From Xylographa opegraphella (lineage: Eukaryota), in contig JALDZX010000029.1 of the NCBI GenBank assembly GCA_022813865.1, positions 248,001 through 277,005 on the forward strand: DNA of 29,005 nt, read 5' to 3'. Shown here piece by piece: positions 3,586-29,005 of the stretch. The number at the start of each line of letters is the position of its first letter. The first letter of the stretch is position 1. The notes beneath the pieces are model-generated. The model did no database searches and was not told the DNA's origin. It was given only the letters and a program-made list of their open reading frames with translations. Made by a program: the position numbers and the translations under genes.

Positions 3586-4369
3586 CTACGCATTATAAGC
3601 TGTAAGGTTCTTGTATGTATCGCAATAAAACTGTTTCATATTAGAGTACTCTGCTAGCCAGCATTTCTGTATAATGTTCCCACAAAAAACATAGTCGACG
3701 TTTGGGAGATTGCCAAGCAAGTGCCGGACCTACTGGCGCTCGAAAAGGCTGCATTCGTACCACTCCCAGATTACGATTGAGTAGATAATGCAGCCAAGGT
3801 GAAAAATATCGGCTTGCGCAGTCAAGCCGTTGTCACTGGCCATGTTGATATCGGCGTCTAACGGTATCAGATAGCACTGGCCAAAATCGATCAATTTGAG
3901 GGATAGGTCGTCAGCGACGTATATTTCGAAGCGCCATGTCATCGACCAGAACATTCGAGCTGTGAAAGTGGAATACAGTCTTGATATGGTTTAGATTTCA
4001 TCTAGCTTTCCGAGAACGATCAACTTCGGCCTCGCTCGTGATATAGATTTCGAGATCATCTCGCTTATAAAGAGCAAGCCGGATACCGTCTGCTGAAATA
4101 TTGATACGTTTAGCTATCCCGTCACAACGTCCTACCCGCAAATAAATTGCTTTCTCCCGTGCGAATGCTCCGCAGTTGACTTCATTGACGTATTCTTGAC
4201 CCCCACGATCCATTCATGCATGGATGTAAGGTCTCGAACTTTGGGAATTTTAAGAGCATGAGAGCCGTCAAGCAAGACAATAGAGTTGGTCCCAGTTCCA
4301 TGTCCCAGTTCCATGGAATGTCTCAGTAAAATAATGAAAGCGAATTCCATTGCGCTTCAAAAACGACAT
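3586..4369 (-). pseudogene. Protein kinase-like pseudogene
   Basis: Kinase motifs are colinear across frames: G-loop-like HGTGTNS and ALKIPK, EKAIYLRVG, catalytic-loop-like LVDDMALRNI, LKLIDFGQ, ADIFHLG, IIQKCW. Interrupted by a 13-bp duplication (4289-4314), frameshifts near 4213 and 3920, and in-frame stops at 4000-3998 and 3732-3730. Confidence 0.85.
4289..4314. repeat. 13-bp tandem duplication (GTCCCAGTTCCAT x2) that frameshifts the kinase pseudogene
   Basis: Seen directly at 4289-4301 and 4302-4314. Removing one copy restores an open frame from ATG 4369 (MSFLKRNGIRFHYFTETFHGTGTNS). Confidence 0.9.
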
Positions 4370-4763
4370 GAAAGTGCCGACAAGTGCTAGGGTGGTACAG
4401 GTTGAAGATTGCCAATCAAGACGTGACGATATTTCCAATCTGTAAAACAGTGAAAATTATCAACCGTTATTTACTGCGTATTGTACTGCCTCAGTAGATA
4501 CCTCAGATTGGCGAATCAAGTTTTGCAGCCGGTATTCTTTCCCACTGCGTGGAACGTGGAATGTGTCACGTGTCACGCTTTCAAGGGAGGCATGGCAAGT
4601 TAATGTAGACTGCTTTGAACTCTATTCTAACAATTCCTGAAGGGCTTCTCAATATAAGGAATACAGGTGAACCTCATGTCTACTTCTTGCTCGCATAAAA
4701 AAGAACGAGAAGCAGCAGAAATAGGAATACAGTAGACCAATTCCGGCTCCTATGTTGGGACTT

Positions 4764-6479
4764 TCAGCGCCCCCCAACCTGACCCTTTGGAATAGGCTTG
4801 ATCCAGCTTAACGCCAGATTGATCCCAATCGTCATAACTCCAATGATCCAGAAGGTTCGAGCATAGTCTGTCTTTTCGGTTCTGAAAAGAATGGCAAAGA
4901 TCACTCCTCCGAGATTGCCGGCCGCTCCAGTGCAGCCAGACACAATGCCATTGGCGTGGGGGTGGACGTGGGGAACAAGGGAGAAGTTCGCGCCATTACC
5001 TGCTTCGAGGAAGAAGGCCATGCCAGCGATCAAAGCCATCATCGTGGCCTTTGAGTGCGGGTCGATCATACCGATTGTTATAAGGAAAGCGCCGGTGACG
5101 ATGGCAACTCCGTGGATCCAGAATTTCTTGCCCCAGACACCTGTGTATCGGTAGATCATATCGCTGATGAAGCCACCAGCGGGTCTGAAGAAGATGTTTA
5201 AAAGTCCAAACATGGCAGCCCAGCGTCCACTGCCACTTTGGCCGAGGTCTTCGAAATTTTTAATATAATACGACCCGAGGATGGAATTGATGGCTAGCTC
5301 AGCACCGAAGGAGCAGAAATAGGTCCCACACATGACGAGAGTTTGCAGAGAGAGGATGACAGGCAGTGCTTCTTTGAAGGATGGTTTTTGGACAATCTCG
5401 CCACAGGCAATATCAAGTACATGCTGTTGAGTTATTTGCGCCTCGCCGTCGTCACCTGCACCGGGTTTGTCGGTAGTGTAATAGTCGTTACTCTTGCCGC
5501 TGGTCTTGTCCGGCTTCCCGTCGAGGCCGGGAGACGATCCCTGCTTCTCTGTGGTCCTATCGGTGATATCAACTGCAACGCCGGTGATCACATGGCTGGT
5601 GATGTTGTTTTTGATAGCTAGATGACGCTCCGACCATTTGCCTGTAGGGGTATCTGGGCAGAGCAACAACATCGCGATGCCAGTCGCTGTGATGACGATG
5701 AATGGCACGATGAATGTAATACGCCACGCGACATGTGCGCTCAGATGCTGTGTTCTCACGAGAGACTCGAAGATGGCGGGCATAAAGAAGTAAGTGATGC
5801 CTCCACCAGCGTTGCCGAAGCCTCCAGTCAATGCATTCGCAGTGCCGACGATATTCTTGTCGAAGAAGCCAGTGGACCAGACCTGACACGGTACGAAGCT
5901 ACCGCCCAATATACCGATGAAGAAGCGTAGGGCAAGGAGACCCTGTATGTTAGTGACAGCTCCTGCTAAAGCAGTAGGAATAGCGCCGGCCAGGAGGCAG
6001 CCTACGAAGGTGTACCGAGGACCGAATCGATCACAGGACGGTCCAGCGATAAGTCGGACCAGGAGGCTAAAGACAGTGAGACACTGGTTCTAGCGAAAGA
6101 TGACAGCCATAACTTACGTGGCGCACAAGGAAACAATATTTGAGTTGGCAACATCAGTTTTGGACAAGCCGAGGTCTTTGGCAATGGTTTCGCTTAACTA
6201 GAAAAGTTCTGAGCATGGCACTCAATGATTGTTGACCGAACAATCCTGCATACCAGTGGTGGGAAAGCATACCTATGTTGATTAGCCTCAAACTCGATTG
6301 AAGCAGCTGCGGCAAAATAAGACTTACCAAGACCAAAAGGCCACAAAAAAGCCAAACCAGGAGAAGAAGAAGACGCGACCATAAAGGTTCAGAGGATTGA
6401 GACCGGGAATAGAGCGAGCCTTACGGTTTACCGGATTAACTTCGGGAGCCTTCCACAAGGTGGTAATATCGAAGCCCAT
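4764..6479 (-). CDS. nrtA: High-affinity nitrate transporter, MFS nitrate/nitrite porter family (NRT2; NrtA/CrnA/NIT-10-like); exons 6479-6328, 6272-6254, 6197-6118, 6066-4764
   Basis: Typical fungal NRT2 N-terminus ([18 protein letters not shown]...[12 protein letters not shown]). Nitrate-signature motifs GGFGNAGGG and GAAGNLGG, conserved arginines in LLVRLIAG and FFRPAGG, and [10 protein letters not shown]. Three GT-AG introns keep the frame. Orthology to nrtA versus nrtB is not resolved. Confidence 0.93.
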
Positions 6480-7027
6480 GATGAACTCCTCGGGGCGGAA
6501 AAATGTAGGGCAAGCAGTCGACTCGAGTGTGTCGGTCAGGTTCCGATGTGTGGAATGAACCAATTCACTTCATACAGACGCCCGAACACTGGGGAGAGAG
6601 CGAAAGGATGAGAACGATGTTCGAGATATAGGACTGGAGGGAAAACCAAGGCAAGACTGCGATCTACCTTCTCCGATGTATCTCAGCGGTATCGCCAAGA
6701 AGCAGCTGCAAATCTCTACCGCGGACAGCTTCTGCGAGAGACATCTCGCCGAGAACAGCGATAGCGATTTGACGGAATCAAGGAGATCGTTCCGCGCGTG
6801 ATTTCGAACAGCCCTCCAGAGGTCTGTGGAATTCGCCATCCTGGATTCATCTCAGAGCATGGTGAGTGGAGATGCTTTCAGGGACAGTGACGAGGCAAAT
6901 CTTGGTGCGCGTCCACAATTGAAAAAGAAGGGTCTCGAAGCGGGCGTGAGAGGCCGGAGGGGGGGTAGCGGCAGGACACGCTGGACTTTGGAGTGTCCGA
7001 CTGAGCAAGCACACCATATTGAAGTGA

Positions 7028-7058
7028 GATAAAGATTCGGATAGTCTGATCTCTTATC
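7028..7058. promoter_or_regulatory. Cluster of GATA sites (candidate AreA/NIT2 binding) upstream of the nitrate transporter
   Basis: GATAAA at 7028, GATAG at 7040 and TTATC at 7054 lie within about 30 bp, roughly 550 bp upstream of the NRT2 ATG. Further GATA sites occur near 7303 and 7337. Confidence 0.5.
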
Positions 7059-7395
7059 AACAGCAGCCAACATAAGCTTCACTGAATCTATGCGAGCATA
7101 CAACCCACGTCCGGGCTCACTTAGGTAATGTAAATTCCATGCATCGCAGGGGACTTGGCGCCGAGAGTCTTTGGTCAAGCAGATGCCTCTGGGGCAATGT
7201 ATGTGTGGTGCCATAGTTTCATCTTCGGGCCGCCTCCCTGGAAATTTCGCCTTGCTCCACACTTGTCTTCCTGTTTAAACTCCGACACCTCAAATCTTTA
7301 CCGATAGGTAACCGACATAGTTCACACCCATAAAGCTATCGTGTGGTGGTTTTCCACCCGCTTACCACCATTGACAGCCATATGAAATGGCAGCG

Positions 7396-7403
7396 CTCCG
7401 AGG
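7396..7403 (+). promoter_or_regulatory. Candidate NirA/NIT4 binding site (CTCCGAGG)
   Basis: Exact match to the A. nidulans NirA consensus CTCCGHGG, about 920 bp upstream of the nitrate transporter start. Confidence 0.5.
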
Positions 7404-7564
7404 GTCGTTCTGGTCACGCCACCTCACGCCACTCTTCCTCCTCCCTGTCATGCTACATTTTTGTCTTTGCGTCTGCAGCTACTGGTAGGAGCCCTCCATG
7501 GTCTTTAGGAATAGTCGGGTGAAGGGCATCTCTAAACGGACTCCATTTGCGAGAAGACTACTTC

Positions 7565-7573
7565 CACAGCCTC
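7565..7573 (-). promoter_or_regulatory. Candidate Crz1/CrzA calcineurin-response element (GAGGCTGTG)
   Basis: Plus-strand CACAGCCTC contains the GAGGCTG CDRE core on the minus strand. Related CACAGCCAA at 8392-8400 and GAGGCT at 8109-8114. Confidence 0.4.
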
Positions 7574-8059
7574 GCTAAATATATCAATGCCGCATTTGCA
7601 AGCGTTATTGGAAGCGCGTCCGAAGACTTGTGCTTCTATGCCTCACTTTGTAGCCAATTCTAAGGAATAGCGGCCGATTCCGTAACTCTCGCCAATGGTC
7701 GTAGCACCGCGGCGATGCCACAGTGACAACCAGATTGCTTGGGGGTCCGAGGCGTGTCGTGACGCGAGTTACAATCAATCAATCAGCCCAGTCCTCCCTA
7801 CCGAGAGGTTTTCCATACATATCCACAAACAATGGAATGGAAATCTTCTTGACAGTCTGCTCAGCACCAACAGTCTGAAATTGCACGAATACGTCCAGCG
7901 GACTCAAGGTAATGGATTTAGGCGAGCTAAGCGCCAAGCGACTAGGGCACGAAAGGGAGCTCTGGCGGAGATGTACAGATACAGACAACGTCTTTACATC
8001 CAGATAGGCTCCACGAACGAGGTGCCACCGATCGATGTAAGTTTGTGAAAAAGTAATGG

Positions 8060-8280
8060 GCCAAGAAGCTACGGAATCACCTCGATTCTGCGGGTCTCTT
8101 GGCGCCGCGAGGCTCTTGGCGCAGGCGAGATGCTTGGCGCCGCGTGGTACTTGGCGCACTGTATGGACGAAGGGGGTCCGCATACCTTTACGTTTCCGCG
8201 GATGATAATCAAGTATACCGTATCGTAGGAACAGTTTGACCAGGAGATGACGACGCAAGTGATGCATGCCGTTTCTTGGC
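8060..8280. promoter_or_regulatory. Cluster and tandem array of PacC/Rim101-type sites (GCCARG) upstream of the phosphate symporter
   Basis: GCCAAG at 8060, CTTGGCGC at 8098, 8115, 8133 and 8150, and CTTGGC at 8275. Additional sites at 7933 (GCCAAG) and 8652 (GCCAGG). Confidence 0.7.
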
Positions 8281-8409
8281 TGGACAGATTGTCTGCGGAA
8301 AGATGAGCTAGGGGTTTTCAGCCCACGCCCAGAGCAGGACATCGCCTCAGGCGCTTTGTAGATCTCTCGCACGACTCAATATTAAAGACTTCACAGCCAA
8401 CTGTGAGCC

Positions 8410-8415
8410 CACGTG
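8410..8415. promoter_or_regulatory. Candidate Pho4/NUC-1/PalcA E-box (CACGTG in CCCACGTGG)
   Basis: Exact bHLH phosphate-regulon consensus, 260 bp upstream of the phosphate transporter ATG. Confidence 0.6.
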
Positions 8416-8669
8416 GTGAACATGAAGCCTAGGATGAAGTCTCCTTTTCTCGCGAGGCGTCCGTCGCCGGGCGATGCTCTTTACAGATGGTTGTCTGGTC
8501 TGTTGCCAGCGAGAGTAGCAGCATTGGATGACGAGATCACTCTTTTCCGGGCCAGAAGGCGAGAACGACTTAAATAACGCTCTTCTCTCTGTTTAATCCT
8601 ATCTTACGCCGTTTCCAATCGAGTCCCTCACCATCGCCTTCAGGAAAACTCGCCAGGACCTGACGCAAG

Positions 8670-10364
8670 ATGCCTCTCTCGCAATATGACTGGATCCTTG
8701 CAGTGATCACGATTGCCTTTTGCTGCAGCGCATTCGGAAATGGCGCCAACGACGTTGCCAACTCGTACGCAACTTCAGTCGCCGCCCAGACGCTCAAGCT
8801 ATGGCAAGCAGGCATCCTGGCCATCATCACCGAGTTCGTGGGAGCCGTTGCATTGGGTGCTAGGGTGACCTCCACAATCAAGAATAGCATTATCGACATC
8901 AACAGATTCAACGGAAAGCCAGGTGTTTTGATCCTTGCCATGGCCTGCTCCGAAGTAGGCAGTGCCACTTGGTTGTTTATTGCGACCCGGCTAGGATTTC
9001 CCGTATCTACGACGCAGACCATTGTCGGAGCCTTGATCGGTGTTGGCTATGCCTCGGGAGCAACCGTCACATGGGGCTGGGAGAAAGGCAGTGTTTCTCA
9101 GGTCGCTGCGTCTTGGGCCATCGCCCCTTGCCTCGCCGGGGCCATTGCGGCGGTCTTATTCGCGACTCTCAAATATGCGGTCCTTGAACGTCGAGATCCG
9201 TTCAAATGGGCCATGCGCCTGATTCCCTTCTATCTCGCCTTCACCGCAGGCATCCTCGCGCTTTTCATTGTCATCGAGGCGCCAAGCGCACCTTCACTCG
9301 AGGAGTTCGGTGCAGGCAAGGTGGCCGGAATAATCTTGGGCGTTTTCTTCGGAATGCTGATCATTGCATATGTGTTTTTCGTACCATACTTCCATCGCCG
9401 CCTTGTGAAGAACGATGCTCGCGTCAAGTTCTGGCATATCCCTCTCGGACCGATGCTGTGGAAGGACGATCCCTGGCTATATTTCCCTGCCAGAGATGAC
9501 GGCCCCGTGGTCATTGATTACTACGAGGGAGCACATCACGCGAGAAGCGCACCCTCAGCCGACAACGATATCCTACGAGCTCAAGACACCGATCGCAAGG
9601 ATATTCCAGCGTTCGACTCCCCCAATCTGGAGGCCAACGTGGGCGATATTGAATCCAAAGCTCCAGCTAAAGTCTTCCTCGAACCTAGAGCCCGCTTCCT
9701 CCGTTCAACGGATCATCTACCTCTTTACAAGCCCGCCAGAATGTGGGCCTGGCTTCAATTCATCCTACTCCAGGGCGTCTCACGTGACTGCATTACATTC
9801 GACTCCGAGCACCTCAGGAAATCGCACGCCCTTGCCAAAAGATATGACAACAGAGTCGAGCACCTATGGACTTACGCTCAGGTAGCCAGCGCAATGCTCA
9901 TGTCAATCGCACACGGGTCTAACGACGTGGCCAATGCCGTTGGACCATGGTCAGCAGCGTATGCCACCTATCAAGCGGGAACGGTCGAAACAAAATCTCC
10001 CACTCCGGTTTGGATCCTGGCAGTCGCCGGACTCCTGCTCGGCGCGGGTTTCTGGTTCTTCGGCTTTCATGTCGTCAGATCCTTGGGCAATCGAATCACT
10101 CAGGTCTCTCCAACGCGAGGCTACGCCATGGAACTGGGCTCGGCCATCACAGTTCTCCTGGCCTCACGTCTGGCCTTGCCGGTCAGCACGACTCAGTGTT
10201 TGACAGGCGCTGCTGTTGGTGTTGCCCTGATGAACTTTTCGCTGGGGGCCGTGAATTGGAGACAGTTGCTATTCATCCTTTCTGGGTGGATTCTAACATT
10301 GCCTATTGCCGGGTTGATCTCTGGACTTCTTCTGGGAATCGCCCTCAATACCCCTCACTTTTGA
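8670..10364 (+). CDS. PHO89: Sodium-coupled inorganic phosphate symporter, PiT/PHO4 family (Pho89/PHO-4-like), 564 aa, intronless
   Basis: Both PiT signature repeats are present (GNGANDVANS and HGSNDVANA), along with PVSTTQ twice, SPTRGYAMELG and multiple transmembrane segments. Confidence 0.95.
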   Translation: MPLSQYDWILAVITIAFCCSAFGNGANDVANSYATSVAAQTLKLWQAGILAIITEFVGAVALGARVTSTIKNSIIDINRFNGKPGVLILAMACSEVGSATWLFIATRLGFPVSTTQTIVGALIGVGYASGATVTWGWEKGSVSQVAASWAIAPCLAGAIAAVLFATLKYAVLERRDPFKWAMRLIPFYLAFTAGILALFIVIEAPSAPSLEEFGAGKVAGIILGVFFGMLIIAYVFFVPYFHRRLVKNDARVKFWHIPLGPMLWKDDPWLYFPARDDGPVVIDYYEGAHHARSAPSADNDILRAQDTDRKDIPAFDSPNLEANVGDIESKAPAKVFLEPRARFLRSTDHLPLYKPARMWAWLQFILLQGVSRDCITFDSEHLRKSHALAKRYDNRVEHLWTYAQVASAMLMSIAHGSNDVANAVGPWSAAYATYQAGTVETKSPTPVWILAVAGLLLGAGFWFFGFHVVRSLGNRITQVSPTRGYAMELGSAITVLLASRLALPVSTTQCLTGAAVGVALMNFSLGAVNWRQLLFILSGWILTLPIAGLISGLLLGIALNTPHF

Positions 10365-10917
10365 AGTCACTCCGACTCTATTTTCTGGGTTTATCTTCTT
10401 GGTGGTTACCACGAGAAGCGGAATAAGCCATTTAGCTCGTTTGCCGACAGCAACTTCAATTATAGCATAGGAACTTATACAACTCATGTAATAATAGATC
10501 AAGCTTAATAGGCATACATACCCTGCAAATATACCTGAAAATTCAATCTCCAGTCAGTTCTGGTCCCGTTTCTTAATCTTGAGTAATCGGTTACGGGAGT
10601 CCATGGTCTCTGACCTCGTCTCAGCTCCGACGATGAATAGCATAGTCTGATGACGAACCCCAACTGAATCTGATAAGGATCTAGAACATTGAGATCCACA
10701 ACACGAACGGCGAATGCTGACGACTAGTTCTCTTGGAGGGCTCATTATTGGCGTAGGAAGTGTTGTTCCTGACTGCAAGCCAGTATCACATGCTGATCAA
10801 CGGCCACGAGATAATTGCCGAGCAAAGCCAACAGTGAGATGAAGGCGAACCGAGTGAGCCGCGTACCCCACACACTGGACCCTGGAGTAAAGATCGCACC
10901 GTTTCTCGTTACTTCAA

Positions 10918-10966
10918 GCCAAGAGTCTGGGCGCCTTGACGCAGCCTGGAACTGCCGCCTTGGCGC
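10918..10966. promoter_or_regulatory. PacC-type sites upstream of the ENA ATPase
   Basis: GCCAAG at 10918-10923 and CTTGGCGC at 10959-10966, 80-125 bp upstream of ATG 11044. The latter is the same 8-mer as in the pho89 array. Confidence 0.5.
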
Positions 10967-11043
10967 TTCGTCCCAGTCCAAAGATACCTTATGTAGGACA
11001 AACGTCCCCCATCGTCCCTCATACTCCAACTGGCACGAGTAAA

Positions 11044-14000
11044 ATGACGGCCGAACGTGAGAATAAGCAGAATAAGCAGCACCATGGCTCCGGACAAGCC
11101 AGCCAACTGCTCTCCGCCCCTGCGCACACACTCACGTGCGATGTGGTTTGCTCAGAAATCGGCACCGATGCCAACGACGGCCTTACCGCGGGCGAGATCA
11201 AGGCCAGACTCGGAGAGTTTGGGAGGAACGAGTTGGGAGATGGGCCGGGAGCGCAACCGTTGCAGATTCTTCTCCGTCAGGTCGCGAATGCAATGATGCT
11301 AGTTAAGCGACCAGGTCTCTCATTCTAGGTATATTTCGTTAATTTTGTAGTGTAGGTCTTGATCTTGGCCATGGCTGTCAGTTTTGGTATTCATTCGTAT
11401 ATCGAGGGCGGAGTCATTAGCGCCGTTATTCTCTTGAACATCGTCGTCGGATTCTTTCAGGAATATAGTGCTGAAAAGACGATGAATTCGCTGCGATCTT
11501 TGAGTTCTCCGACTGCATCCACCGTTAGGAATGGCAAGACAGAAGTAGTGCCCACTGCAGAAGTTGTACCAGGTGACATAGTCGAGCTGAAGACAGGAGA
11601 TACGGTGCCAGCGGATATCAGGTAAGATGATCGGCATCCCGAGGGATTGGATATATCACTGACGTCTCCAAAGGCTGCTTGAAGCAGTAAATTTTGACTG
11701 CGACGAAGCACTCCTTACTGGGGAGTCCTTGCCAGTTCAAAAGAATGCCGAAGTGACATTTGATGCGGACACAGGGCTAGGAGACCGCCTGAATATTGCA
11801 TTCAGCTCTACCACAGTCAGTAGAGGTCGTGCCCGTGGAGTTGTGTTTGCTACGGGCATGAAGACTGAAATTGGTTCGATTGCCGCCGCTCTTCGTGCAA
11901 AAGGAGATAGAATCCGTCCCGTCAAACGCAAACCAGACGGCTCCGCTCGGCCACACCGCTATGCCCAGGCGTGGGGACTGACAGCTGGAGATTCCATCGG
12001 CCACTTTCTGGGCGTAAACGTTGGCACCCCATTGCAGAGAAAACTCTCTAAGCTTGCCCTCCTGCTCTTTGGTATCGCCGTCGTTTGCGCTATCATCGTT
12101 CTCGGGGCGAACAAGTTCTCCAACGATCCGGATGTTATCATCTATGCTGTTGCCACCGGCCTGAGCATGATTCCTGCATGTCTTGTTGTAGTTTTGACCA
12201 TCACTATGGCAGCTGGAACCAAGAGAATGGTTCAACGACAAGTTATCGTGCGCAAATTAGATTCCCTGGAAGCTTTGGGGGCAGTCACAGGTTCGTCCCG
12301 CTTCTGACGAAGGAACAACGTTGACACCTAGTAGACATCTGCTCGGATAAGACAGGCACGCTCACACAGGGGAAGATGATCGTAAAGGAAGTATGGATAC
12401 CAGCAAGGGGGACTTTCTCGGTGGGCGCTTCAACAAATCCTATCGACCCGACGGAGGGCGATATTTCGCATGGGCACACGTCCCCATGTAAACTTAACAG
12501 AGACAACGAGAAGACCGGAGGTAATGGACGGGAAATGAAAGCGTCACCTGAGGGGTTGCTAAAAGACAATCCACATCTCGAAGACTTTCTCAACGTCGCT
12601 TCCCTCGCCAACCTGGCACATGTCCACCAAAGCGAAGGAGCTTGGACTGCTCGCGGTGAGCCGACTGAGATTGCTATTCAGGTCTTTGCTTCACGTTTCA
12701 ATTGGAACCGTGATCGTCTGACGAAAGAACTCTCCTGGAAACACATTGCGGAGTTTCCCTTTGATTCGAATATCAAGAAAATGTCCGTCATCTTTTCCCG
12801 CAATGAAAACAAGATGGTTTTCACTAAGGGCGCTGTAGAGAGGGTCATTGGTTCCTGCGACTACATCCATTGGGAGAGTTGTGATGCAACAAATATGACT
12901 GAAGACATCCGCAGTCACATTCTTGAGAATATGGAGGCTTTGGCTGCTCAGGGTCTCCGCGTGCTGGCCCTTGCCAGCAAAAAATTCAAGGGAAGCATTG
13001 CTTCCGATGCAGTGTATGACCGTGACGCGATCGAGAGCAACCTCACTTTCCTAGGACTCATCGGAATATACGATCCTCCTCGCCTCGAATCCTATAATGC
13101 TGTCAAACAGTGTCATCAGGCCGGGATTGCTGTTCGTATGCTCACTGGCGACCATCCCGGCACAGCGAGAGTTATTGCCGCTCAGGTTGGCATCATTCCA
13201 TCTAACTTAAAAGAGACTGCAAAGGACGTTGCAGATTCCATGGTGATGACAGGCAGCCAATTCGACAAGCTTTCTGACGAAGACATAGACAAACTTCAGA
13301 TGCTTCCACTCGTCATCGCCCGCTGCTCACCAAACACCAAGGTCCGCATGATCGATGCTCTTCGTAGGCGTAAGCTCTTCGGTGCAATGACCGGGGACGG
13401 AGTGAATGACTCACCCGCGTTGAAAAGAGCGGCTGTCGGTATTGCCATGGGCCAGGCGGGCTCAGACGTGGCAAAAGACGCTTCGGACATCGTTCTGACT
13501 GACGACAACTTCGCCTCTATTCTCAATGCTATAGAAGAAGGCCGTCGTATGTTCGACAATATTCAGAAGTTCGTTCTTCATCTTCTATCAGAGAACATTG
13601 CCCAAGCGTGTACCCTCCTCGTCGGATTGGCTTTCAAAGACTCTTCAGGTTTGTCCGTATTCCCTTTGGCTCCAGTCGAAATTCTCTGGATTATTATGAT
13701 CACCTCCGGATTGCCGGACATGGGACTTGGTGTTGAAGCAGCCGCGCCAGATATCATGAGTCGCCCACCCCAATCCCTTACCCATGGTATCTTTACATTT
13801 GAAGTAATGTTGGACATGCTTGTTTACGGACTTTGGATGGCCGCGCTTTGTCTCACGTCCTTCTCACTCGTCGTCTTCGGCTTCGGTGACGGGAACCTGG
13901 GTGTCAGCTGTAACAACAGCTACAGCACAGAGTGCGATACCATATTTCGAGCTCGGGCGACAACGTTCGTTTGCCTGACCTGGTTTTCACTTTTCTTGGC

Positions 14001-14391
14001 ATGGGAATTGACCAGCATGCGCCGTTCCTTCTTCCGCAGCAAGCCAAAAAGTAAACTATACTTCACCCAGTGGCTGCACGATGTCTGGAGAAACCAATTT
14101 TTGTTCTGGGCTATCGTTGCCGGCTTCATTACCATTTTTCCCACTCTCTACATCCCTGTCATCAATCGCGTGGTCTTTCTGCACGAGGGCATTAGCTGGG
14201 AGTGGGGCATCGTCTTCGTTGAGGGGACCCTCTTCGTTGGTGGCGTAGAGGCGTGGAAGTGGGCGAAGAGGATCTTCTTCCGCAAGAAAGCCCGTAGACA
14301 TCCAGAGGGTAACCTCGTGGATCTGGAAGCCAACGGTTTGAAAGGATTACGGGGAGACTCGGGGGCGATTGGTCACGAGCGAGAGACGTGA
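11044..14391 (+). CDS. ENA1: ENA-type P2D Na+/K+-exporting P-type ATPase; exons 11044-11301, 11356-11621, 11674-12290, 12335-14391
   Basis: P-type motifs DEALLTGES, DICSDKTGT (formed by splicing intron 12291-12334), FPFDS, KGAVE, MLTGD and TGDGVNDSP. ENA-diagnostic TM4 MIPACLVVVLTITMA (no PEGL as in Ca2+-ATPases), plus LGVNVGTPLQRKLSKLA and FRARATTF. Confidence 0.94.
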
Positions 14392-14941
14392 AATTTTTTT
14401 TTTAGTGACGCCACACCACTGTAACAAGACGAAAATGAAACGAGCAAGAGAAAAGATGGTACATCAGTATCGCAAGCAATAAACTTACCACGAAGCGATC
14501 AGGGTTGAGTCAAGGATGCTGTATTAGAAAGATACAGTAATAGGTGTGAACCTTTCAATACGCCACCAAGGCCAATAACAATATACAGTTTTTAGATAGC
14601 TAACGGAATCACGACGTGCCAATAGTAGAATCAATCCTCCTTTATTTTTATCCAAGTATCATAATATTGACCAAGTAGACTGTTTTGCGTTATTTATTTT
14701 ATTGACTTGAATAGCCATCGCCAGCCACGACCGCGTACAGGTTTGTGGAGTATTAGTATGGAGTATTATATTGCCAAGACCCGGATAATTTTCCATTTCC
14801 TTGGCACTGCCGCCCGAGCCCACAGCACTCGCCATCCCGGACCGAGGATATCCCAGCACCAAGCGATCCATCCTCAACATCATTCACCACAACCCACACC
14901 TGCCCAACCCTCCCCCCAATCGTCCCACAACGCTCACAACG

Positions 14942-15820
14942 ATGCGATCAACCGCCCGCCTCCTCGCAACGGTCAAGCCGAGCCGCTACCTCACGCCCGG
15001 CAACCCCACGGGCCTCACCGGCCTCTTCACGCACCCCCTGCCCCGGCCCACGCTCATCTACATCTACAGCCAAACGCTCGACAAGCTGCGCGCCTTCCCC
15101 GAGCACTCGGCCTACCGCGCCGCGACCGAGGCGCTCACCGCCCACAGGCTGCGTATCGTGGAGGGGATCCGGCCGCCGGGGTACGAGGAATGGAGCGCGC
15201 AGGCGCGCAAGCTGCTGGCCGAGCACCCGGAGGTCTTCAACACGCCGCCCGGGGGCGTGAGCCACGATAACGAGAAGCACGTCAAGAGCGTGCATGATGG
15301 GCGGAGCTTCGTGCGCTCCGTCGTGCCGCCGCGGGTGGACGACCGCACGATCGAGTGGGATGGCGAGGAGGTGCCCCTGGAGCAGGAGCAGGGCAGCAGG
15401 GCGAATTTTGAGGCGCTGGCGGGGGAGCGGCCGGGCAGTGATGAAAAGACGGTGGAGTGGGTGCAGGAGCCGGCGCTGGAGGCGACGCAGTACGTTCCGT
15501 TCCTGTTGGGGAGGGGGAGAGGTATCTCCTCCCTAGCTGCGGACTGGCTGACGCGTGGTGCTTTATAGGGTGGAGGAGTTGGAGAGGCAGATTGGGGGAG
15601 GCCTGATCGAGGAGGTGATCCAGGTGGCGGAGGGGGAACTCAAGCTGGTGGACGAGATGTTCCAGGCGAAAGTGTGAGGGGTATTCCTGTTTTTCTATGA
15701 CTGGGTTCGTTACTGACCGGAGACAGGTGGGAGGAGCTGGAGGAGAAGCCCAAGGATGGACAATGGCAGTATTTCGCGCGTGACCAGCATACTTCAGGGA
15801 CTCAGGAACCGCCGAGTTGA
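14942..15820 (+). CDS. NDUFA5: Mitochondrial complex I accessory subunit NDUFA5 (29.9-kDa subunit); exons 14942-15489, 15569-15673, 15727-15820
   Basis: Presequence-like start MRSTARLLATVK, then PTGLTGLFTHP, YRAATEALTAHRL, and the spliced C-terminus QVEELERQIGGGLIEEVIQVAEGEL...KVWEELEEKPKDGQWQYF characteristic of the family. Two GT-AG introns with CTGAC branch sites. Confidence 0.93.
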
Positions 15821-16492
15821 TGACCAATGGTGTGGGGGCGAGCGGTAAGGCTTGCAAGACGTTCTGATCAATGTATAGTACATAGCGCCGAGGACGCCTC
15901 GCCTCATTCGCCGAGTGCCGTCAGATGCGGATAACAATCACGACCGGGAGACTCTAGGGTGTGGCTGTTTTCCTCTTGACACCCTCCCTCTACAATTCAC
16001 AGCAACGAGAACCCTCATCCCTCGACCATGGCATATATAAGACTAGAATTTTTATATAGAATCGCCAGCATCGGCCACTCCCCAGCTAGAAGCAGTTTGC
16101 GACGAAGCAGGACGTGCACATCTCCGCGCATTGAATGATAAAATTGCTCTAAACGCTACGCGCAGGCGTCCGAAAAGCCGTCGTTTTTTTCACATCGTGC
16201 ATATCTCATAAGCCTCGTATACGAACCAGAATCCCTTCTGGCATGCAAAGGATAACAAAGCCTTATTTGATACAAAAGTTTGCCCGATGCAACGCGCTGT
16301 GGGAAAAAAAAAACATCCCAAAAATCCCACCCGTGATATGTGCCAAAAAGGTCTCCAGATCGCTGGGCTACGCCAGTGCTGTATCTAACCTGGCCAGCGT
16401 GGAAGCTGGGATATGTTTGTCCAAAAAAAAGTACGCCTGGAGCGTTTTCCTGCAGAAATCCAACGCCTGAAGCTCCGATGTAAGTTCGGAGT

Positions 16493-18928
16493 TCAAGTCG
16501 TTGATACAGGCTCCGTTTCTGTGTGCTGCCGCAAATCCCTCTCGTGGTTCTGTGGTGTCTGTCTGTTCTCTGGCACTGCGTCTGGATCATCTCCCAGCAC
16601 GTCCTTCTGTCCCTGTAAGTCCATATCAACCTCTTCCCTCTCTTGCGGTCCCGGTTCTCGGAGCATTTCATTGCCACCTACACCTACGAGGTCCATATCA
16701 GCCAGCCCAGAATCCACGTGTTCCATTCCCCGTGTTCTCTCTGGTCCCAATATCTCGGATAGCCGTTGCATACTCCTCCCCCTCCGGGAGCGTACATCAT
16801 CCCCGTCATCCTCATCGTTAAGGTCAATCGAGTTCTTATGCACAAGATATCCGCGCCCATCCACCACAATCTCTTCCCACCTGTTCTCACCGCTCGGACT
16901 GACAGGCACGATCTGAGCTTCATCGCCTTCGCTCTGTGAATCAGCAGGTCGCCAGTGACGACCCCTGTTTGGAAAGTCGAAACACTCAGTGCCAGTAAAT
17001 GGCTCGTGTCCACGTGAATTTACAATGTAAGTGCCAGGGCCATCAAATGGAATGTCCAGAGAGGAGTGTCGAGCGACGTGGGTATGGGAGTCTGACGATA
17101 GTGGTCGCGAACGGCCTTCATGACCAAGATCGATGTCTTCGCGTTCGACTGCTTGGGAAGGATCGATGTACTGAGTTTGGGAAGGAGCAGAGGAACTGTG
17201 CGGTCGAGCATAAGTCATGTTCTGAAGAGATGGCCGCGGGGTCGGGTAGTCACTATTGAGCGGCGGGAATAGAGACAAGAGTTTACGAGCGGAAAGCCTA
17301 TCTTGCGGGTGATCGCTCAGACAACGGTTGGTCAAGTCTCGATAGTATTGTGGGATCCCATCTCCTTTGTCTTTCAGGTAAAGCTCCCGAGGCTGTCGTT
17401 CCGGCTCGTCTTCCTCCTCAGCAAGAGCCCAGAGGACCATACCAAGCTGAAAGAGATCTGATTTGACGCCAATGTAAATCGATATTCTCTGACTGCTCTC
17501 AATCAACCTGGCTATTTCGGGTGGTTCCCAACCTACAGGACAGCCTCGCCGATTAATGTCAATTATATGCGCTCGGTCGTGATCATCGATGACAATGTTA
17601 GATAGCGTGAAATCACCCTGCACGAAACCAGCTTCGTGTATTTCTGACAAACCTCGCACAATCTGTTTCGCCCACCGCTCCCTCCTCGCCCATTCCAACG
17701 ACCCTTTGTAGTCAAAGATCATATCAACAAGAGGGCCTTGTTCGGCGAAGCTGATCAAAAGACCCTTCACCAAGTCGTGCCTCTCGTCGACCACCAGGCC
17801 TTGGAATTGAATGACATTCTGGGCACCTCTAAGCGCACTTAATGCATTGATCTCGTAAAGGAACTCCTCAACACTGTCGGGTCCTGGGATTTCTTTCTTT
17901 ATACATATATGCCCATGAACGCGAACCTTGTAAACAAATCCGGACATATGAGACTCGAACATTACTTCACTTTCAGGTATACGAGCAAATCGGAGGTGCT
18001 GGACTGCATGGGTAGAGGGATACGGTATTATTTCATTTGTATCTTCGGTGACGTGGACATGGAGCCGATCATCCTGGCTAGTCTCGAGCTTCAGATTGGT
18101 GACGGTGTCGTAGAACTGTATTTCTGGCAAGGACATTCGAATTGCCTCGTATATACGTGCACTTTTGTCACGCTGATACTGAAGGCCTTGTAGATCACGC
18201 TCTAATGATTCTGGCGGAGCATCTCGGTAGTCACAGGAGACGGTCACCCTCCGCCACCTTGTTGGTGTCTCGGCGTAGGTAACGAAGAACTTCTCCCGAG
18301 GCGACTTGTCACGGAAATGCATGCTTAGGTTGAGAATCCATTTTTCCTCGAGCTCGGCCTTGATCTGCTCATCGATATCGTCATTAAATGATGGTTCCGA
18401 CATTGGTGTTGGTAAGTCCTGAGGCAAATCGGGTGGAGGCGAGGGAGGGGGAGCAGGACGCTGAATACGCGGCTGCTCTGGTGTCTGTGAAGATCCATTG
18501 TTCTGTGAGTCGCGCGGGAATTGAGCGAAATCAGGACTCTCCACCTTGCAGACCGCTGGAGCCGAAAGCTTGGGTATTGAGATGGGGAGAGGAGAAGGAG
18601 GACGAGCGCTCATGGCTCTCCTTCTTTCATGAGAGGCAGGTCTTCGATCGCTTCCGCTTGGCTCGACCGGCGTTAGTCGCTCACGTCGCTCCGAGTTCTG
18701 TCTTCTGAACGTCGCCGGTCGCGGCAAACCAGGAACCACCTTCCTCGACAACCTACGGCCGAGACTGGGCCTTCCAGGTTCGGACTCTTGCTTCGTATCA
18801 GTGCATGGTGGTTGCTCCGTCTTTCCCATCCACCTGCTGAACCGGTGCCAAATTCGCTTCTGCTCACTCTTGTCTGTATCGAGCGCAAAGCCGGGGCGGA
18901 TGCCAGTGGAGGGGAGAGGCATGGCCAT
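16493..18928 (-). CDS. Atypical fungal protein kinase-domain protein (about 811 aa from the first ATG)
   Basis: Single long ORF. Kinase fold: SHMSGFVYKV, CIKKEI, EFLYEINAL, IHEAGFVQGDFTLSNI, IIDIN, GWEPPE, KSDLFQLG, HPQDR. Proline/arginine-rich N-terminus and acidic C-terminus. First in-frame ATG is 18928; the ORF track starts at a non-ATG codon. An upstream exon is not excluded. Confidence 0.85.
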   Translation of the reverse strand: MAMPLPSTGIRPGFALDTDKSEQKRIWHRFSRWMGKTEQPPCTDTKQESEPGRPSLGRRLSRKVVPGLPRPATFRRQNSERRERLTPVEPSGSDRRPASHERRRAMSARPPSPLPISIPKLSAPAVCKVESPDFAQFPRDSQNNGSSQTPEQPRIQRPAPPPSPPPDLPQDLPTPMSEPSFNDDIDEQIKAELEEKWILNLSMHFRDKSPREKFFVTYAETPTRWRRVTVSCDYRDAPPESLERDLQGLQYQRDKSARIYEAIRMSLPEIQFYDTVTNLKLETSQDDRLHVHVTEDTNEIIPYPSTHAVQHLRFARIPESEVMFESHMSGFVYKVRVHGHICIKKEIPGPDSVEEFLYEINALSALRGAQNVIQFQGLVVDERHDLVKGLLISFAEQGPLVDMIFDYKGSLEWARRERWAKQIVRGLSEIHEAGFVQGDFTLSNIVIDDHDRAHIIDINRRGCPVGWEPPEIARLIESSQRISIYIGVKSDLFQLGMVLWALAEEEDEPERQPRELYLKDKGDGIPQYYRDLTNRCLSDHPQDRLSARKLLSLFPPLNSDYPTPRPSLQNMTYARPHSSSAPSQTQYIDPSQAVEREDIDLGHEGRSRPLSSDSHTHVARHSSLDIPFDGPGTYIVNSRGHEPFTGTECFDFPNRGRHWRPADSQSEGDEAQIVPVSPSGENRWEEIVVDGRGYLVHKNSIDLNDEDDGDDVRSRRGRSMQRLSEILGPERTRGMEHVDSGLADMDLVGVGGNEMLREPGPQEREEVDMDLQGQKDVLGDDPDAVPENRQTPQNHERDLRQHTETEPVSTT

Positions 18929-27910: not shown

Positions 27911-29005
27911 TCAGTCTTTGTCGTAGCGTCCTCTGCTGACTGAAGAACTCCCACTGCTTGACATACCTAGAAGCCTCATGAACTGACTATGCTTGGTGGG
28001 ATTCAGAAGCTTAGTTAGTCCGTCCGCGGCCATATCTTCTGTAGGCACATAGGTCACCTTGATCCGGTTTTGCTTAGCCAAGTCCCGAATATGATGATAC
28101 ATGACATCGATGTGCTTTGACCTTTCATGAAGATGCGGGTTCTGGGTTAATGCTAGGGAACCCTGGTTGTCCCCTCTAAGGTCCCCGCAGTATGGGTTCC
28201 GCCCTAAGTACTGAGGGTATCCTGACTCACGGAGGAGCTGGGTTAGCCATTGCGCCTGGCGAGCTCCCACTGACAATCCAACGTACTCGGCTTCCGTAGT
28301 TGAGGTAGATACCGACTTTTGCTTCCGGCTTGCCCAGGACACGGGACCTCCTGCCATCTTGAAAACGTACCCGAATGTTGACTTCCGATCCTGCTTATCG
28401 TCGGCGTAGGCTGCGTCGGTAAAGCCGTGAAGATTTCTTTCTTCTTCCGGTTCTGGTCCAAAGGTTATTCCAACGTCAGCGGTGCTTCGCATGTACCTTA
28501 ACAGATGTTTGGCCCCCATCAGGTGGTGCTCAGCTGGATCGCTCATGAATTGACTCAATTTACCAAGAGCAAAGGCAATGTCTGGGCGGGTATAAACTTG
28601 AGCATGCATTAGACTTCCGATAAGCTTCTGGTATTCTTTTACGTTTACCCTTTTGTCGTCAGGATTTGCCGGGCGTAGATATTCTTCGCTGTTAAGAGGA
28701 ACTTTGGTGGGCTTGTGCTTGTCGGTCACCATACCAACGGATTCCAATACCTTTTGGATATAGCGGCTTTGACTAAGCTTGATGGTACGCAGCTTGCGGT
28801 CGCGGGTGACTTCTATGCCTAGGATCTTCCGAATCTCCCCCAGGTCCTTGATCTTGAAGACACCAGCCATCTCAGTTTTGAACCACCTAATTTGCTCGGT
28901 AGTCTTGGCGGCGATACCCATATCATCGACGTAAAGTAGCAACAGGATTCCGCGTTCCCTGTGAAGTAGCAGACACGGGTCGACATGGCTTTGAACGAAA
29001 CCCAT
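27911..29005 (-). CDS. Copia-type Pol C-terminus: reverse transcriptase plus RNase H (partial, open at the window edge)
   Basis: DPCL...LLLYVDDM, DLGE...LGIEV, YQKLIGSL...TRPDI, GFTDAAYADD, RKSTFGY, STTEAEY, GDNQG, RSKHIDVMYH and ADGLTK, with no stops over 364 codons. Confidence 0.96.
   Translation of the reverse strand: MGFVQSHVDPCLLLHRERGILLLLYVDDMGIAAKTTEQIRWFKTEMAGVFKIKDLGEIRKILGIEVTRDRKLRTIKLSQSRYIQKVLESVGMVTDKHKPTKVPLNSEEYLRPANPDDKRVNVKEYQKLIGSLMHAQVYTRPDIAFALGKLSQFMSDPAEHHLMGAKHLLRYMRSTADVGITFGPEPEEERNLHGFTDAAYADDKQDRKSTFGYVFKMAGGPVSWASRKQKSVSTSTTEAEYVGLSVGARQAQWLTQLLRESGYPQYLGRNPYCGDLRGDNQGSLALTQNPHLHERSKHIDVMYHHIRDLAKQNRIKVTYVPTEDMAADGLTKLLNPTKHSQFMRLLGMSSSGSSSVSRGRYDKD

Follow-up and report, generated by a model that had tools for sequence, protein, structure and literature searches.

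Positions 248,001 to 277,005 of contig JALDZX010000029.1 of the lichen fungus Xylographa opegraphella (29,005 bp; hereafter the window) contain three neighbouring transporter genes: a nitrate porter of the NRT2 type on the minus strand, a PHO89-type Na+/phosphate symporter on the plus strand and, downstream of the symporter, an ENA-type ATPase on the same strand. An initial annotation of the window proposed that the three form a co-regulated unit for nutrient uptake at alkaline pH. Here we report that PHO89 is found beside genes for sodium or cation extruders in several other fungal lineages, and beside ENA at a frequency above a rough estimate of chance. The interpretation we favour, with about even confidence, is that the PHO89–ENA adjacency of the window is one case of a recurrent and non-random linkage of PHO89 to sodium or cation extruders in filamentous ascomycetes, and that this linkage has probably been selected. 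The gene families are known, and so is the type of arrangement to which it would belong, the functional gene cluster.

Cation extruders as neighbours of PHO89

PHO89 loci were retrieved from metagenome contigs using an alignment of 20 PHO89 sequences alone; since nothing else entered into the choice of loci, their neighbours constitute an unbiased sample. This yielded 78 loci, many with 10-kb flanks, which were searched with the three proteins of the window. Clustering at 90% identity, with one chained group split, resolved 39 lineages: 22 have at least 3 kb on one side of PHO89 (the informative lineages) and 15 have at least 5 kb on both sides. An ENA gene is present in the flank of 11 of the 78 loci, which represent three of the 39 lineages. 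All three fall among the 22 informative lineages, where a CPA2 cation/H+ antiporter accompanies PHO89 in two lineages and NRT2 in one; the corresponding counts among the 15 are two lineages with ENA and two with CPA2.

The linked loci differ in arrangement. ENA is divergent from PHO89, at a distance of approximately 1.8 kb, in the eight loci of the L016 group; the two genes are in tandem and 1.86 kb apart in L063 and L064; and in L028 (8618-17911) PHO89 (+) is followed by a CPA2 gene (11780-13285, -) and a type IID ENA (14635-17911, +), with PHO89 and ENA in tandem, 4.2 kb apart. The best match of every linked ATPase is TIGR01523, that is, type IID. The linked antiporter is CPA2 (PF00999, TIGR00932), with NapA as the nearest solved structure; its nearest clusters in the Atlas are labelled only 'Cation/H+ exchanger', which does not distinguish a Kha1 type from a Nha1/Sod2 type. 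It stands next to PHO89 in L028/L068 and in L066/L067. In the latter pair (L066, 10001-14481) the PHO89 is distant (50% identical to that of the window), CPA2 lies 1 kb downstream and there is no ENA, and the L066 antiporter is 80% identical to that of L028 despite the wide separation of their PHO89s in the tree. Weak CPA2 matches also occur between PHO89 and ENA in L063 (1032-1514; likewise in L064 and L051), at 40% identity over 93 aa (E 4e-8) and 65% over 34 aa, and have the look of a degraded counterpart of the intact L028 gene.

How many such lineages should be expected by chance? For 390 kb of flanks, and on the assumption of 3-5 ENA genes per 25-30 Mb, the expected number of lineages with a linked ENA is 0.04-0.08, and the probability of three or more is 1e-5 to 7e-5. 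L028 and L063 are sister lineages in their PHO89s and their ENAs are 92% identical; if they are counted as one origin, the probability of two or more is approximately 0.002. The linkage cases look separate in origin. The L016-type ENA is 48% identical to the window ENA and lies far outside the clade of the 120 best database matches (homologue lists for PHO89, NRT2 and ENA comprise the best 120 matches per search), while the window ENA falls inside a Lecanoromycete ENA clade of 20 rows (support 98), whose members are unlinked to PHO89 by locus tag.

A number of observations weigh against this interpretation. No ENA is present in the flank examined in 19 of the 22 informative lineages, nor in 13 of the 15 with at least 5 kb on both sides, the latter including L009 and L025, whose PHO89s (70% identity) are as close to that of the window as any. 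Judged by locus tags, eight named genomes have their best PHO89 and ENA homologues at widely separate loci (Psora testacea, Stereocaulon virgatum, Kuettlingeria erythrocarpa, two Variospora, Ikaeria, Endocarpon pusillum and Cadophora malorum), a comparison that covers the best-listed paralogue of each genome; Endocarpon and Cadophora extend it beyond the Lecanoromycetes. In Aspergillus nidulans, enaA (AN6642), enaB (AN1628) and the PHO89-like genes AN8956 and AN3781 bear unrelated gene numbers (PMC12692688). The lineage nearest to the window for both NRT2 and PHO89 (L001-L003) shows no ENA, but its loci end 47-490 bp past PHO89; a search for ENA on contigs of matching size found none among 12 ENA clusters (60 members) of the 120 listed, where NRT2, as positive control, gave seven. 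The chance estimate is built on assumed gene numbers and genome sizes, and the lineages are defined by 90% clustering only. Finally, the spacer upstream of the window ENA (679 bp) has only two copies of GCCAAG, the core of PacC-type sites (10918 and 10959), a number unremarkable in itself; and GCCAAG is enriched at PHO89 promoters with or without a linked ENA, and so provides no argument for the cluster itself. The linkage is thus patchy among fungi and not a general rule.

These same observations lend themselves to the main rival of the selected-linkage reading, namely, that three transporter genes came to be neighbours by chance, each with its own promoter logic, and that the cases elsewhere are leftovers of local synteny or coincidences of paralogues. 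Most lineages, and all named genomes checked, are without the linkage, PacC-type sites go with PHO89 everywhere, and synteny in this part of the genome is generally short-lived, since at E 1e-5 the 78 loci gave no match to four other window genes (encoding a PDI-like protein, NDUFA5, a kinase and Lon). In addition, a very large scan lies behind the choice of the trio, and a lone adjacency therefore bears a look-elsewhere cost. Set against this is the fact that sampling by PHO89 alone still returned the ENA and CPA2 lineages given above, above the number roughly expected for ENA, that the linked cases vary in orientation and involve two ENA subfamilies, and that the recurring neighbours are cation extruders, which in yeast are co-induced with PHO89 by high pH (PMC12692688). 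On balance, we consider neutral adjacency possible but somewhat unlikely. The initial annotation held that this fungus has physically clustered a Na+ pump with the symporter that depends on Na+, and looked to related genomes for the same synteny. The pump–symporter half of that claim gains from the three informative lineages with ENA beside PHO89; the remainder does not, for the complete trio was seen nowhere else, and adjacency of the pair is lacking in most lineages and, by locus tags, in the eight named genomes.

Three further observations concern the surveyed loci. The PHO89 locus of L019 (1-21680; also L032), which is near the L016 group, is gene-poor, with no other stop-free frame of at least 170 aa in 21.7 kb. 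ENAs of the window type (P0412 and P0411) occur on contigs of the same sizes as those of L019 and L032 (819396 and 132387), more than 10 kb from PHO89. L013 has a Penicillium-like PHO89 with a Tc5/pogo-type transposase (7090-8865; HTH_Tnp_Tc5, DDE_1) 1.1 kb upstream.

The three genes and their regulatory regions

All three genes of the window are intact and ordinary members of known families, and splice models and profile matches place them on the strands, and at the spacings, given by the initial annotation: NRT2 and PHO89 are divergent, with 2190 bp from ATG to ATG, and the ENA ATG follows the PHO89 stop in tandem after 679 bp (Table 1). A 26,894-nt contig from a second assembler covers 4000-15600 with no differences. 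It probably derives from the same sample; it therefore excludes an assembly join at the trio, although it is not an independent confirmation.

Table 1. Coordinates of the gene trio and of features in its intergenic regions (positions in the window)
Feature	Position	Strand	Details
NRT2/NNP-family nitrate(/nitrite) porter gene	4764..6479	-	ATG at 6479, stop codon end at 4764; 517 aa
NRT2 exons	6479-6328, 6272-6254, 6197-6118, 6066-4764	-	four-exon splice model
Divergent NRT2–PHO89 intergenic region	6480..8669		2190 bp; nine GCCAAG, one CTCCGAGG (7396), one CACGTG (8410)
Isolated CTTGGCGC (GCGCCAAG on the other strand)	7154..7161	+	675 bp upstream of NRT2 ATG
Isolated GCGCCAAG	7931..7938	-	737 bp upstream of PHO89 ATG
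17-bp tandem array, consensus CTCTTGGCGCCGCGAGG	8096..8157	+	3.6 copies, 78% matches; four PacC-type sites, 520-572 bp upstream of PHO89 ATG
PiT-family (PHO89 / PHO-4 type) Na+/phosphate symporter gene	8670..10364	+	single exon; 564 aa
PHO89–ENA spacer	10365..11043		679 bp; GCCAAG at 10918, CTTGGCGC at 10959
Type IID (ENA) Na+/K+-efflux P-type ATPase gene	11044..14391	+	1065 aa; DKTGT present
ENA exons	11044-11301, 11356-11621, 11674-12290, 12335-14391	+	sole stop-free splice model found

The three introns of NRT2 (6327-6273, 6253-6198 and 6117-6067) are short and bounded by GT..AG. Its last exon alone (433 of the 517 aa) scores 309.8 bits against the NarK/NNP profile TIGR00886 (profile positions 52-368 of 368; cut-off 311.7), and the protein also matches PF07690, is 63-73% identical to database proteins named nitrate transporter, CrnA or NNP family, and nests within a tree of 117 NRT2s. 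A PDB sequence search with the exon returned no match at E 0.001. The protein was absent, as an exact match, from the database search; the public annotation may lack the gene or model it differently.

PHO89 matches PF01384 over the complete profile (388.3 bits, positions 1-350 of 350) and has 7818 database homologues, several of them named sodium-dependent phosphate transporter. The two GANDVAN-type signature stretches, G23-N31 and H415-A423, show no variation across the 20-sequence alignment (A1). By analogy with relatives in yeast and Neurospora, the protein is expected to depend on Na+ and to have an alkaline pH optimum.

The ENA gene has introns at 11302-11355, 11622-11673 and 12291-12334. 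Against TIGR01523, the profile of fungal type IID K+/Na+ efflux ATPases, the last exon alone scores 843.6 bits (cut-off 645.05) and exon 3 scores 248.9; the next family (PMR1-type) reaches 311 bits. The Pfam domains Cation_ATPase_N, E1-E2_ATPase, Cation_ATPase, Hydrolase and Cation_ATPase_C are complete, ICSDKTGTLT is present in the translation, and the protein is 100% identical to a record annotated as a hypothetical protein of X. opegraphella (277,005-base contig). It is accordingly placed in the type IID family, with its preference for Na+ or K+ efflux a matter of prediction.

The genes flanking the trio are of the housekeeping kind (by Pfam, a thioredoxin/PDI-like protein, an NDUFA5 subunit, a protein kinase and a Lon protease), and the two spacers contain no Pfam family (15 further open reading frames included), no Rfam family and no tRNA. 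Just past the NDUFA5-like gene (14801-15568), positions 15001-16000 have a GC-content of 63%, compared to approximately 50% elsewhere, and open reading frames without a Pfam family.

The regulatory argument of the initial annotation rested on a PacC-type 8-mer, CTTGGCGC, said to lie upstream of all three genes. The 8-mer occurs eight times in the window, against 1.15 expected, a number reached by none of 100 shuffles, and all eight copies fall within 7154-10966 (7154+, 7931-, 8098+, 8115+, 8133+, 8150+, 9279- and 10959+). Copies are indeed present upstream of each gene, that of ENA at 85 bp before the ATG; another (9279-) falls inside the PHO89 coding sequence. The claim requires qualification on three counts. 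Firstly, the four copies at 8098-8157 belong to one tandem repeat and represent a single event, which leaves five independent places rather than eight. Secondly, NRT2 and PHO89 share one intergenic region. Thirdly, at 97 GCCAAG promoter sites from 23 other PHO89 lineages there is no flank preference, and in particular no GC before the core, as an extended PacC consensus would have; the two extra bases of GCGCCAAG are therefore peculiar to the window.

The GCCAAG core is a more informative measure. The 2190-bp intergenic region has nine copies (4.1 per kb, compared to 0.86 per kb across the remaining window sequence; Poisson P 1.5e-4), seven of which are in the kilobase preceding PHO89 (-1000..-1). 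A dense cluster is located 395-737 bp from the PHO89 ATG and more than 1.4 kb from that of NRT2; the NRT2-proximal kilobase has just two copies (6694 and 7154), which is not above background. Sites for other regulators are at chance level: NirA-type CTCCGHGG occurs twice in the window (2.64 expected), with a single copy in the NRT2–PHO89 region that is not conserved in L001 or L003, and Pho4/NUC-1-type CACGTG seven times (5.73 expected). HGATAR, present eight times in the 2.19 kb, was judged, with no shuffle control, to be near expectation for so degenerate a motif.

The same enrichment is found well beyond the window. Across 25 PHO89 lineages the median is 4 GCCAAG per kb in the -1000..-1 interval and 0.82 per kb elsewhere in the locus (Wilcoxon 2e-7), whereas six control hexamers of like composition occur upstream of PHO89 at 0.5 per kb (P 9e-6). 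Enrichment of GCCAAG is a family-wide trait of PHO89 promoters, and the PacC motifs therefore give no sign of shared control specific to the cluster. Spacers of linked pairs are especially rich in the hexamer: there are 15 copies in the ENA–PHO89 region of L016, 10 in the L063 spacer and seven upstream of ENA in L028, spaced in the pattern also seen in L063. This distribution fits direct activation of both the PHO89 and the ENA family by PacC, which would bind at these sites.

Five of the L016 copies are in a 9-bp tandem repeat (GCTCGCCAA; 8570-8615), which precedes PHO89 by approximately 1390-1426 bp; here, as in the window, an array of PacC-type sites arose by small-scale tandem duplication. 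A PHO89 promoter with no GCCAAG whatsoever was noted in L037, where a gene of the sodium/bile-acid symporter family (PF01758; 12630-13445, -) is convergent with PHO89, 0.9 kb downstream of it.

The nitrate porter and its pairing with PHO89

The genome of X. opegraphella encodes a second NRT2, MMC26_001199 (P0296), on another contig. It is 68% identical to the window NRT2 and clusters with sequences from the taxonomic relatives Lambiella and Ptychographa (support 100). The window NRT2 instead joins those of L001, L003 and P0268 (support 95, FastTree), has a long branch, and is, from its position in the tree, a second and divergent paralogue.

In the L001-L003 lineage, NRT2 is likewise head-to-head with PHO89, 1671 bp away. 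Clusters of NRT2 and PHO89 proteins share contigs of sizes 225006, 160893, 43347, 22195, 15507, 10794 and 5818; from these seven matches we conclude that the L001-type pair is present on at least seven contigs of separate assemblies. FastTree separates the window PHO89 from that of L001, but an IQ-TREE analysis in which the two were held together gave a likelihood that was better by 4.21 lnL units and was not rejected (p-AU 0.569). The NRT2–PHO89 pair is thus probably an inherited unit of one paralogue lineage. Locus tags from 11 named genomes do not place the best NRT2 and the best PHO89 side by side; the PHO89s in question fall, for the most part, in a different PHO89 clade.

Do all three genes then form one unit? 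On this proposal, NRT2, PHO89 and ENA would be co-regulated for sodium-cycle anion uptake in alkaline conditions, the NRT2 paralogue providing nitrate when the proton gradient is weak. It draws on the recurrence of the head-to-head pair, on the clade formed by the PHO89-linked NRT2s apart from MMC26_001199, on the tree uniting the linked PHO89s, on four GCCAAG copies 400-750 bp from the NRT2 ATG in L001, and on the proposal that a seagrass NRT2 is Na+-dependent (PMC6695921). Much of the remaining evidence points the other way. The NRT2 side of the intergenic region is at background for GCCAAG; a comparison with the 90% consensus of 113 NRT2s shows the window NRT2 to differ at only 15 positions, of which only three are shared with the L001 type, and none is a radical change; the pair is not adjacent in the named genomes and the trio has a single known locus; and no report tying fungal nitrate porters to PacC was found in the portions of the literature available to us. 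We regard the full trio as an unlikely unit. NRT2 is a linked neighbour that may possibly be a member of a pH or sodium module; the initial annotation's inclusion of it in such a unit is unsupported. A single further lineage has it beside PHO89, and nothing connects it to pH or to sodium.

A different history would have the NRT2–PHO89 pair arrive, through either transfer or duplication with translocation, at a position upstream of a resident ENA, in which case the ENA adjacency is an accident. In its favour, ENA sits among its Lecanoromycete orthologues, while the branches of NRT2 and PHO89 are long (0.25 and 0.30-0.40) and their relatives patchy, a canonical NRT2 is present elsewhere in the genome, and the best 120 PHO89 matches include no Ostropomycetidae relative, though such relatives are present in the NRT2 and ENA lists. 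A retrotransposon fragment is also present at 27911-29005 (-), 13 kb from the trio, as an open frame that leaves the end of the window; it matches RVT_2, the copia-type reverse transcriptase, and RVT_3, an RNase H-like domain. Against a relocated pair, no transposase, recombinase or repeat boundary adjoins it, base composition is uniform over 4-15 kb, the flanking genes are of the housekeeping kind, the long branches leave the tree positions unsure, and the relatives were judged from the best 120 matches per search. We think relocation of the pair very improbable.

Nitrate porters with functionally related neighbours are familiar from the crnA-niiA-niaD nitrate assimilation cluster of Aspergillus, in which an NRT2/CrnA-type porter is divergent from a common regulatory region. 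The window differs in that its porter is a second paralogue beside a phosphate transporter, with a single NirA-type site at chance level, and in that Pfam scans of the 29 kb detected no nitrate or nitrite reductase gene.

Phosphate uptake and sodium efflux

The selected-linkage reading derives its functional rationale from Saccharomyces cerevisiae, in which Pho89 imports phosphate with Na+ at high pH, ENA1 and PHO89 belong to one regulatory network, and a pho84 ena1 mutant phenocopies pho84 pho89 (PMC5349140). The functional and regulatory coupling of Pho89 and Ena1, on which the initial annotation had relied, is borne out by that source, which gives the authors' suggestion that it may be conserved in evolution; the same source has Rim101 binding TGCCAAG and describes PacC as a direct activator. 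The likeness to the window extends to the two protein families, to a logic in which a Na+/phosphate symporter operates at high pH and a Na+ ATPase removes the co-transported Na+, and to the proposed route of alkaline induction, through a network that includes Rim101/PacC. There are also clear differences. S. cerevisiae has the two genes at unlinked loci, and its Rim101 works indirectly, by way of Nrg1; in the window they are 679 bp apart, with candidate direct PacC-type sites, and co-regulation of the trio members is a conjecture.

Filamentous fungi provide closer parallels. In Trichoderma virens both ENA-like ATPases and a PHO89-like gene are PacC-dependent (PMC12692688); in T. virens and A. 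nidulans, ENA and PHO89-like genes respond to alkaline pH and depend on PacC. GCCAAG is enriched upstream of PHO89 and of the linked ENAs in the metagenome lineages. Those two model genomes show no adjacency of the genes. The alkali-induced transporter genes of yeast include ENA1, PHO89 and KHA1, a cation/H+ antiporter (PMC12692688), and L028 unites the same three families. The loci of L028, L063 and L066 resemble the window in having PHO89 beside a cation extruder with GCCAAG-rich spacers; they differ in belonging to another lineage (their nearest named PHO89s, at 71-82% identity, are from Penicillium and Cladophialophora), in having CPA2 or its relic between the genes at spacings of 1.9-4.2 kb, and in having no NRT2. 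As far as the sources accessible to us extend, no description of physical PHO89–ENA, PHO89–CPA2 or PHO89–NRT2 linkage was found in the literature, and the accessible text of a 2025 review (PMC12692688) makes no use of adjacent, contiguous or neighbo-.

If the adjacency of PHO89 and ENA has been selected, then the following sequence of events may be envisaged. At neutral to alkaline pH the proton gradient would be weak. PacC would activate PHO89 through the GCCAAG cluster upstream of it, and ENA through sites of its own and perhaps also through a common chromatin neighbourhood, with co-induction of the two genes as the consequence. Pho89 would bring in phosphate together with Na+, and ENA would pump the Na+ back out, so that the gradient that drives uptake is kept. 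It is in this cycle that adjacency could bring a selective benefit.

A bolder version of this proposal is that filamentous ascomycetes have repeatedly and independently built PacC-controlled sodium-cycle clusters, consisting of PHO89 with ENA, CPA2 or both, and that the cluster of X. opegraphella has in addition recruited a divergent NRT2 that works in alkaline, sodium-rich conditions and is perhaps itself coupled to Na+, with the result that phosphate and nitrate uptake would both run on the Na+ gradient made by the pump. We offer this as a speculation that is more probably wrong than right by a wide measure. The ecology of the fungus is, for its part, in keeping with the selected-linkage reading: driftwood is the only substrate of X. 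opegraphella (PMC6234878), and driftwood would be a sodium-rich habitat, in which a sodium-based route of uptake is plausible.

The linkage matters for several reasons. Should it have arisen more than once, it would constitute independent, evolutionary evidence for the coupling of Pho89 and Ena1, and a module for transport would join the few functional gene clusters of fungi that lie outside metabolism. The locus itself is a compact 10-kb fragment that carries its own promoters and lends itself to experiments. If, on the other hand, the linkage is neutral, then the window contains three ordinary genes, and the presence of PacC-type sites across the family of PHO89 promoters is still a useful result. 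For X. opegraphella, a lichen fungus of the seashore, the arrangement may be an adaptation to wetting under sodium-rich and alkaline conditions.

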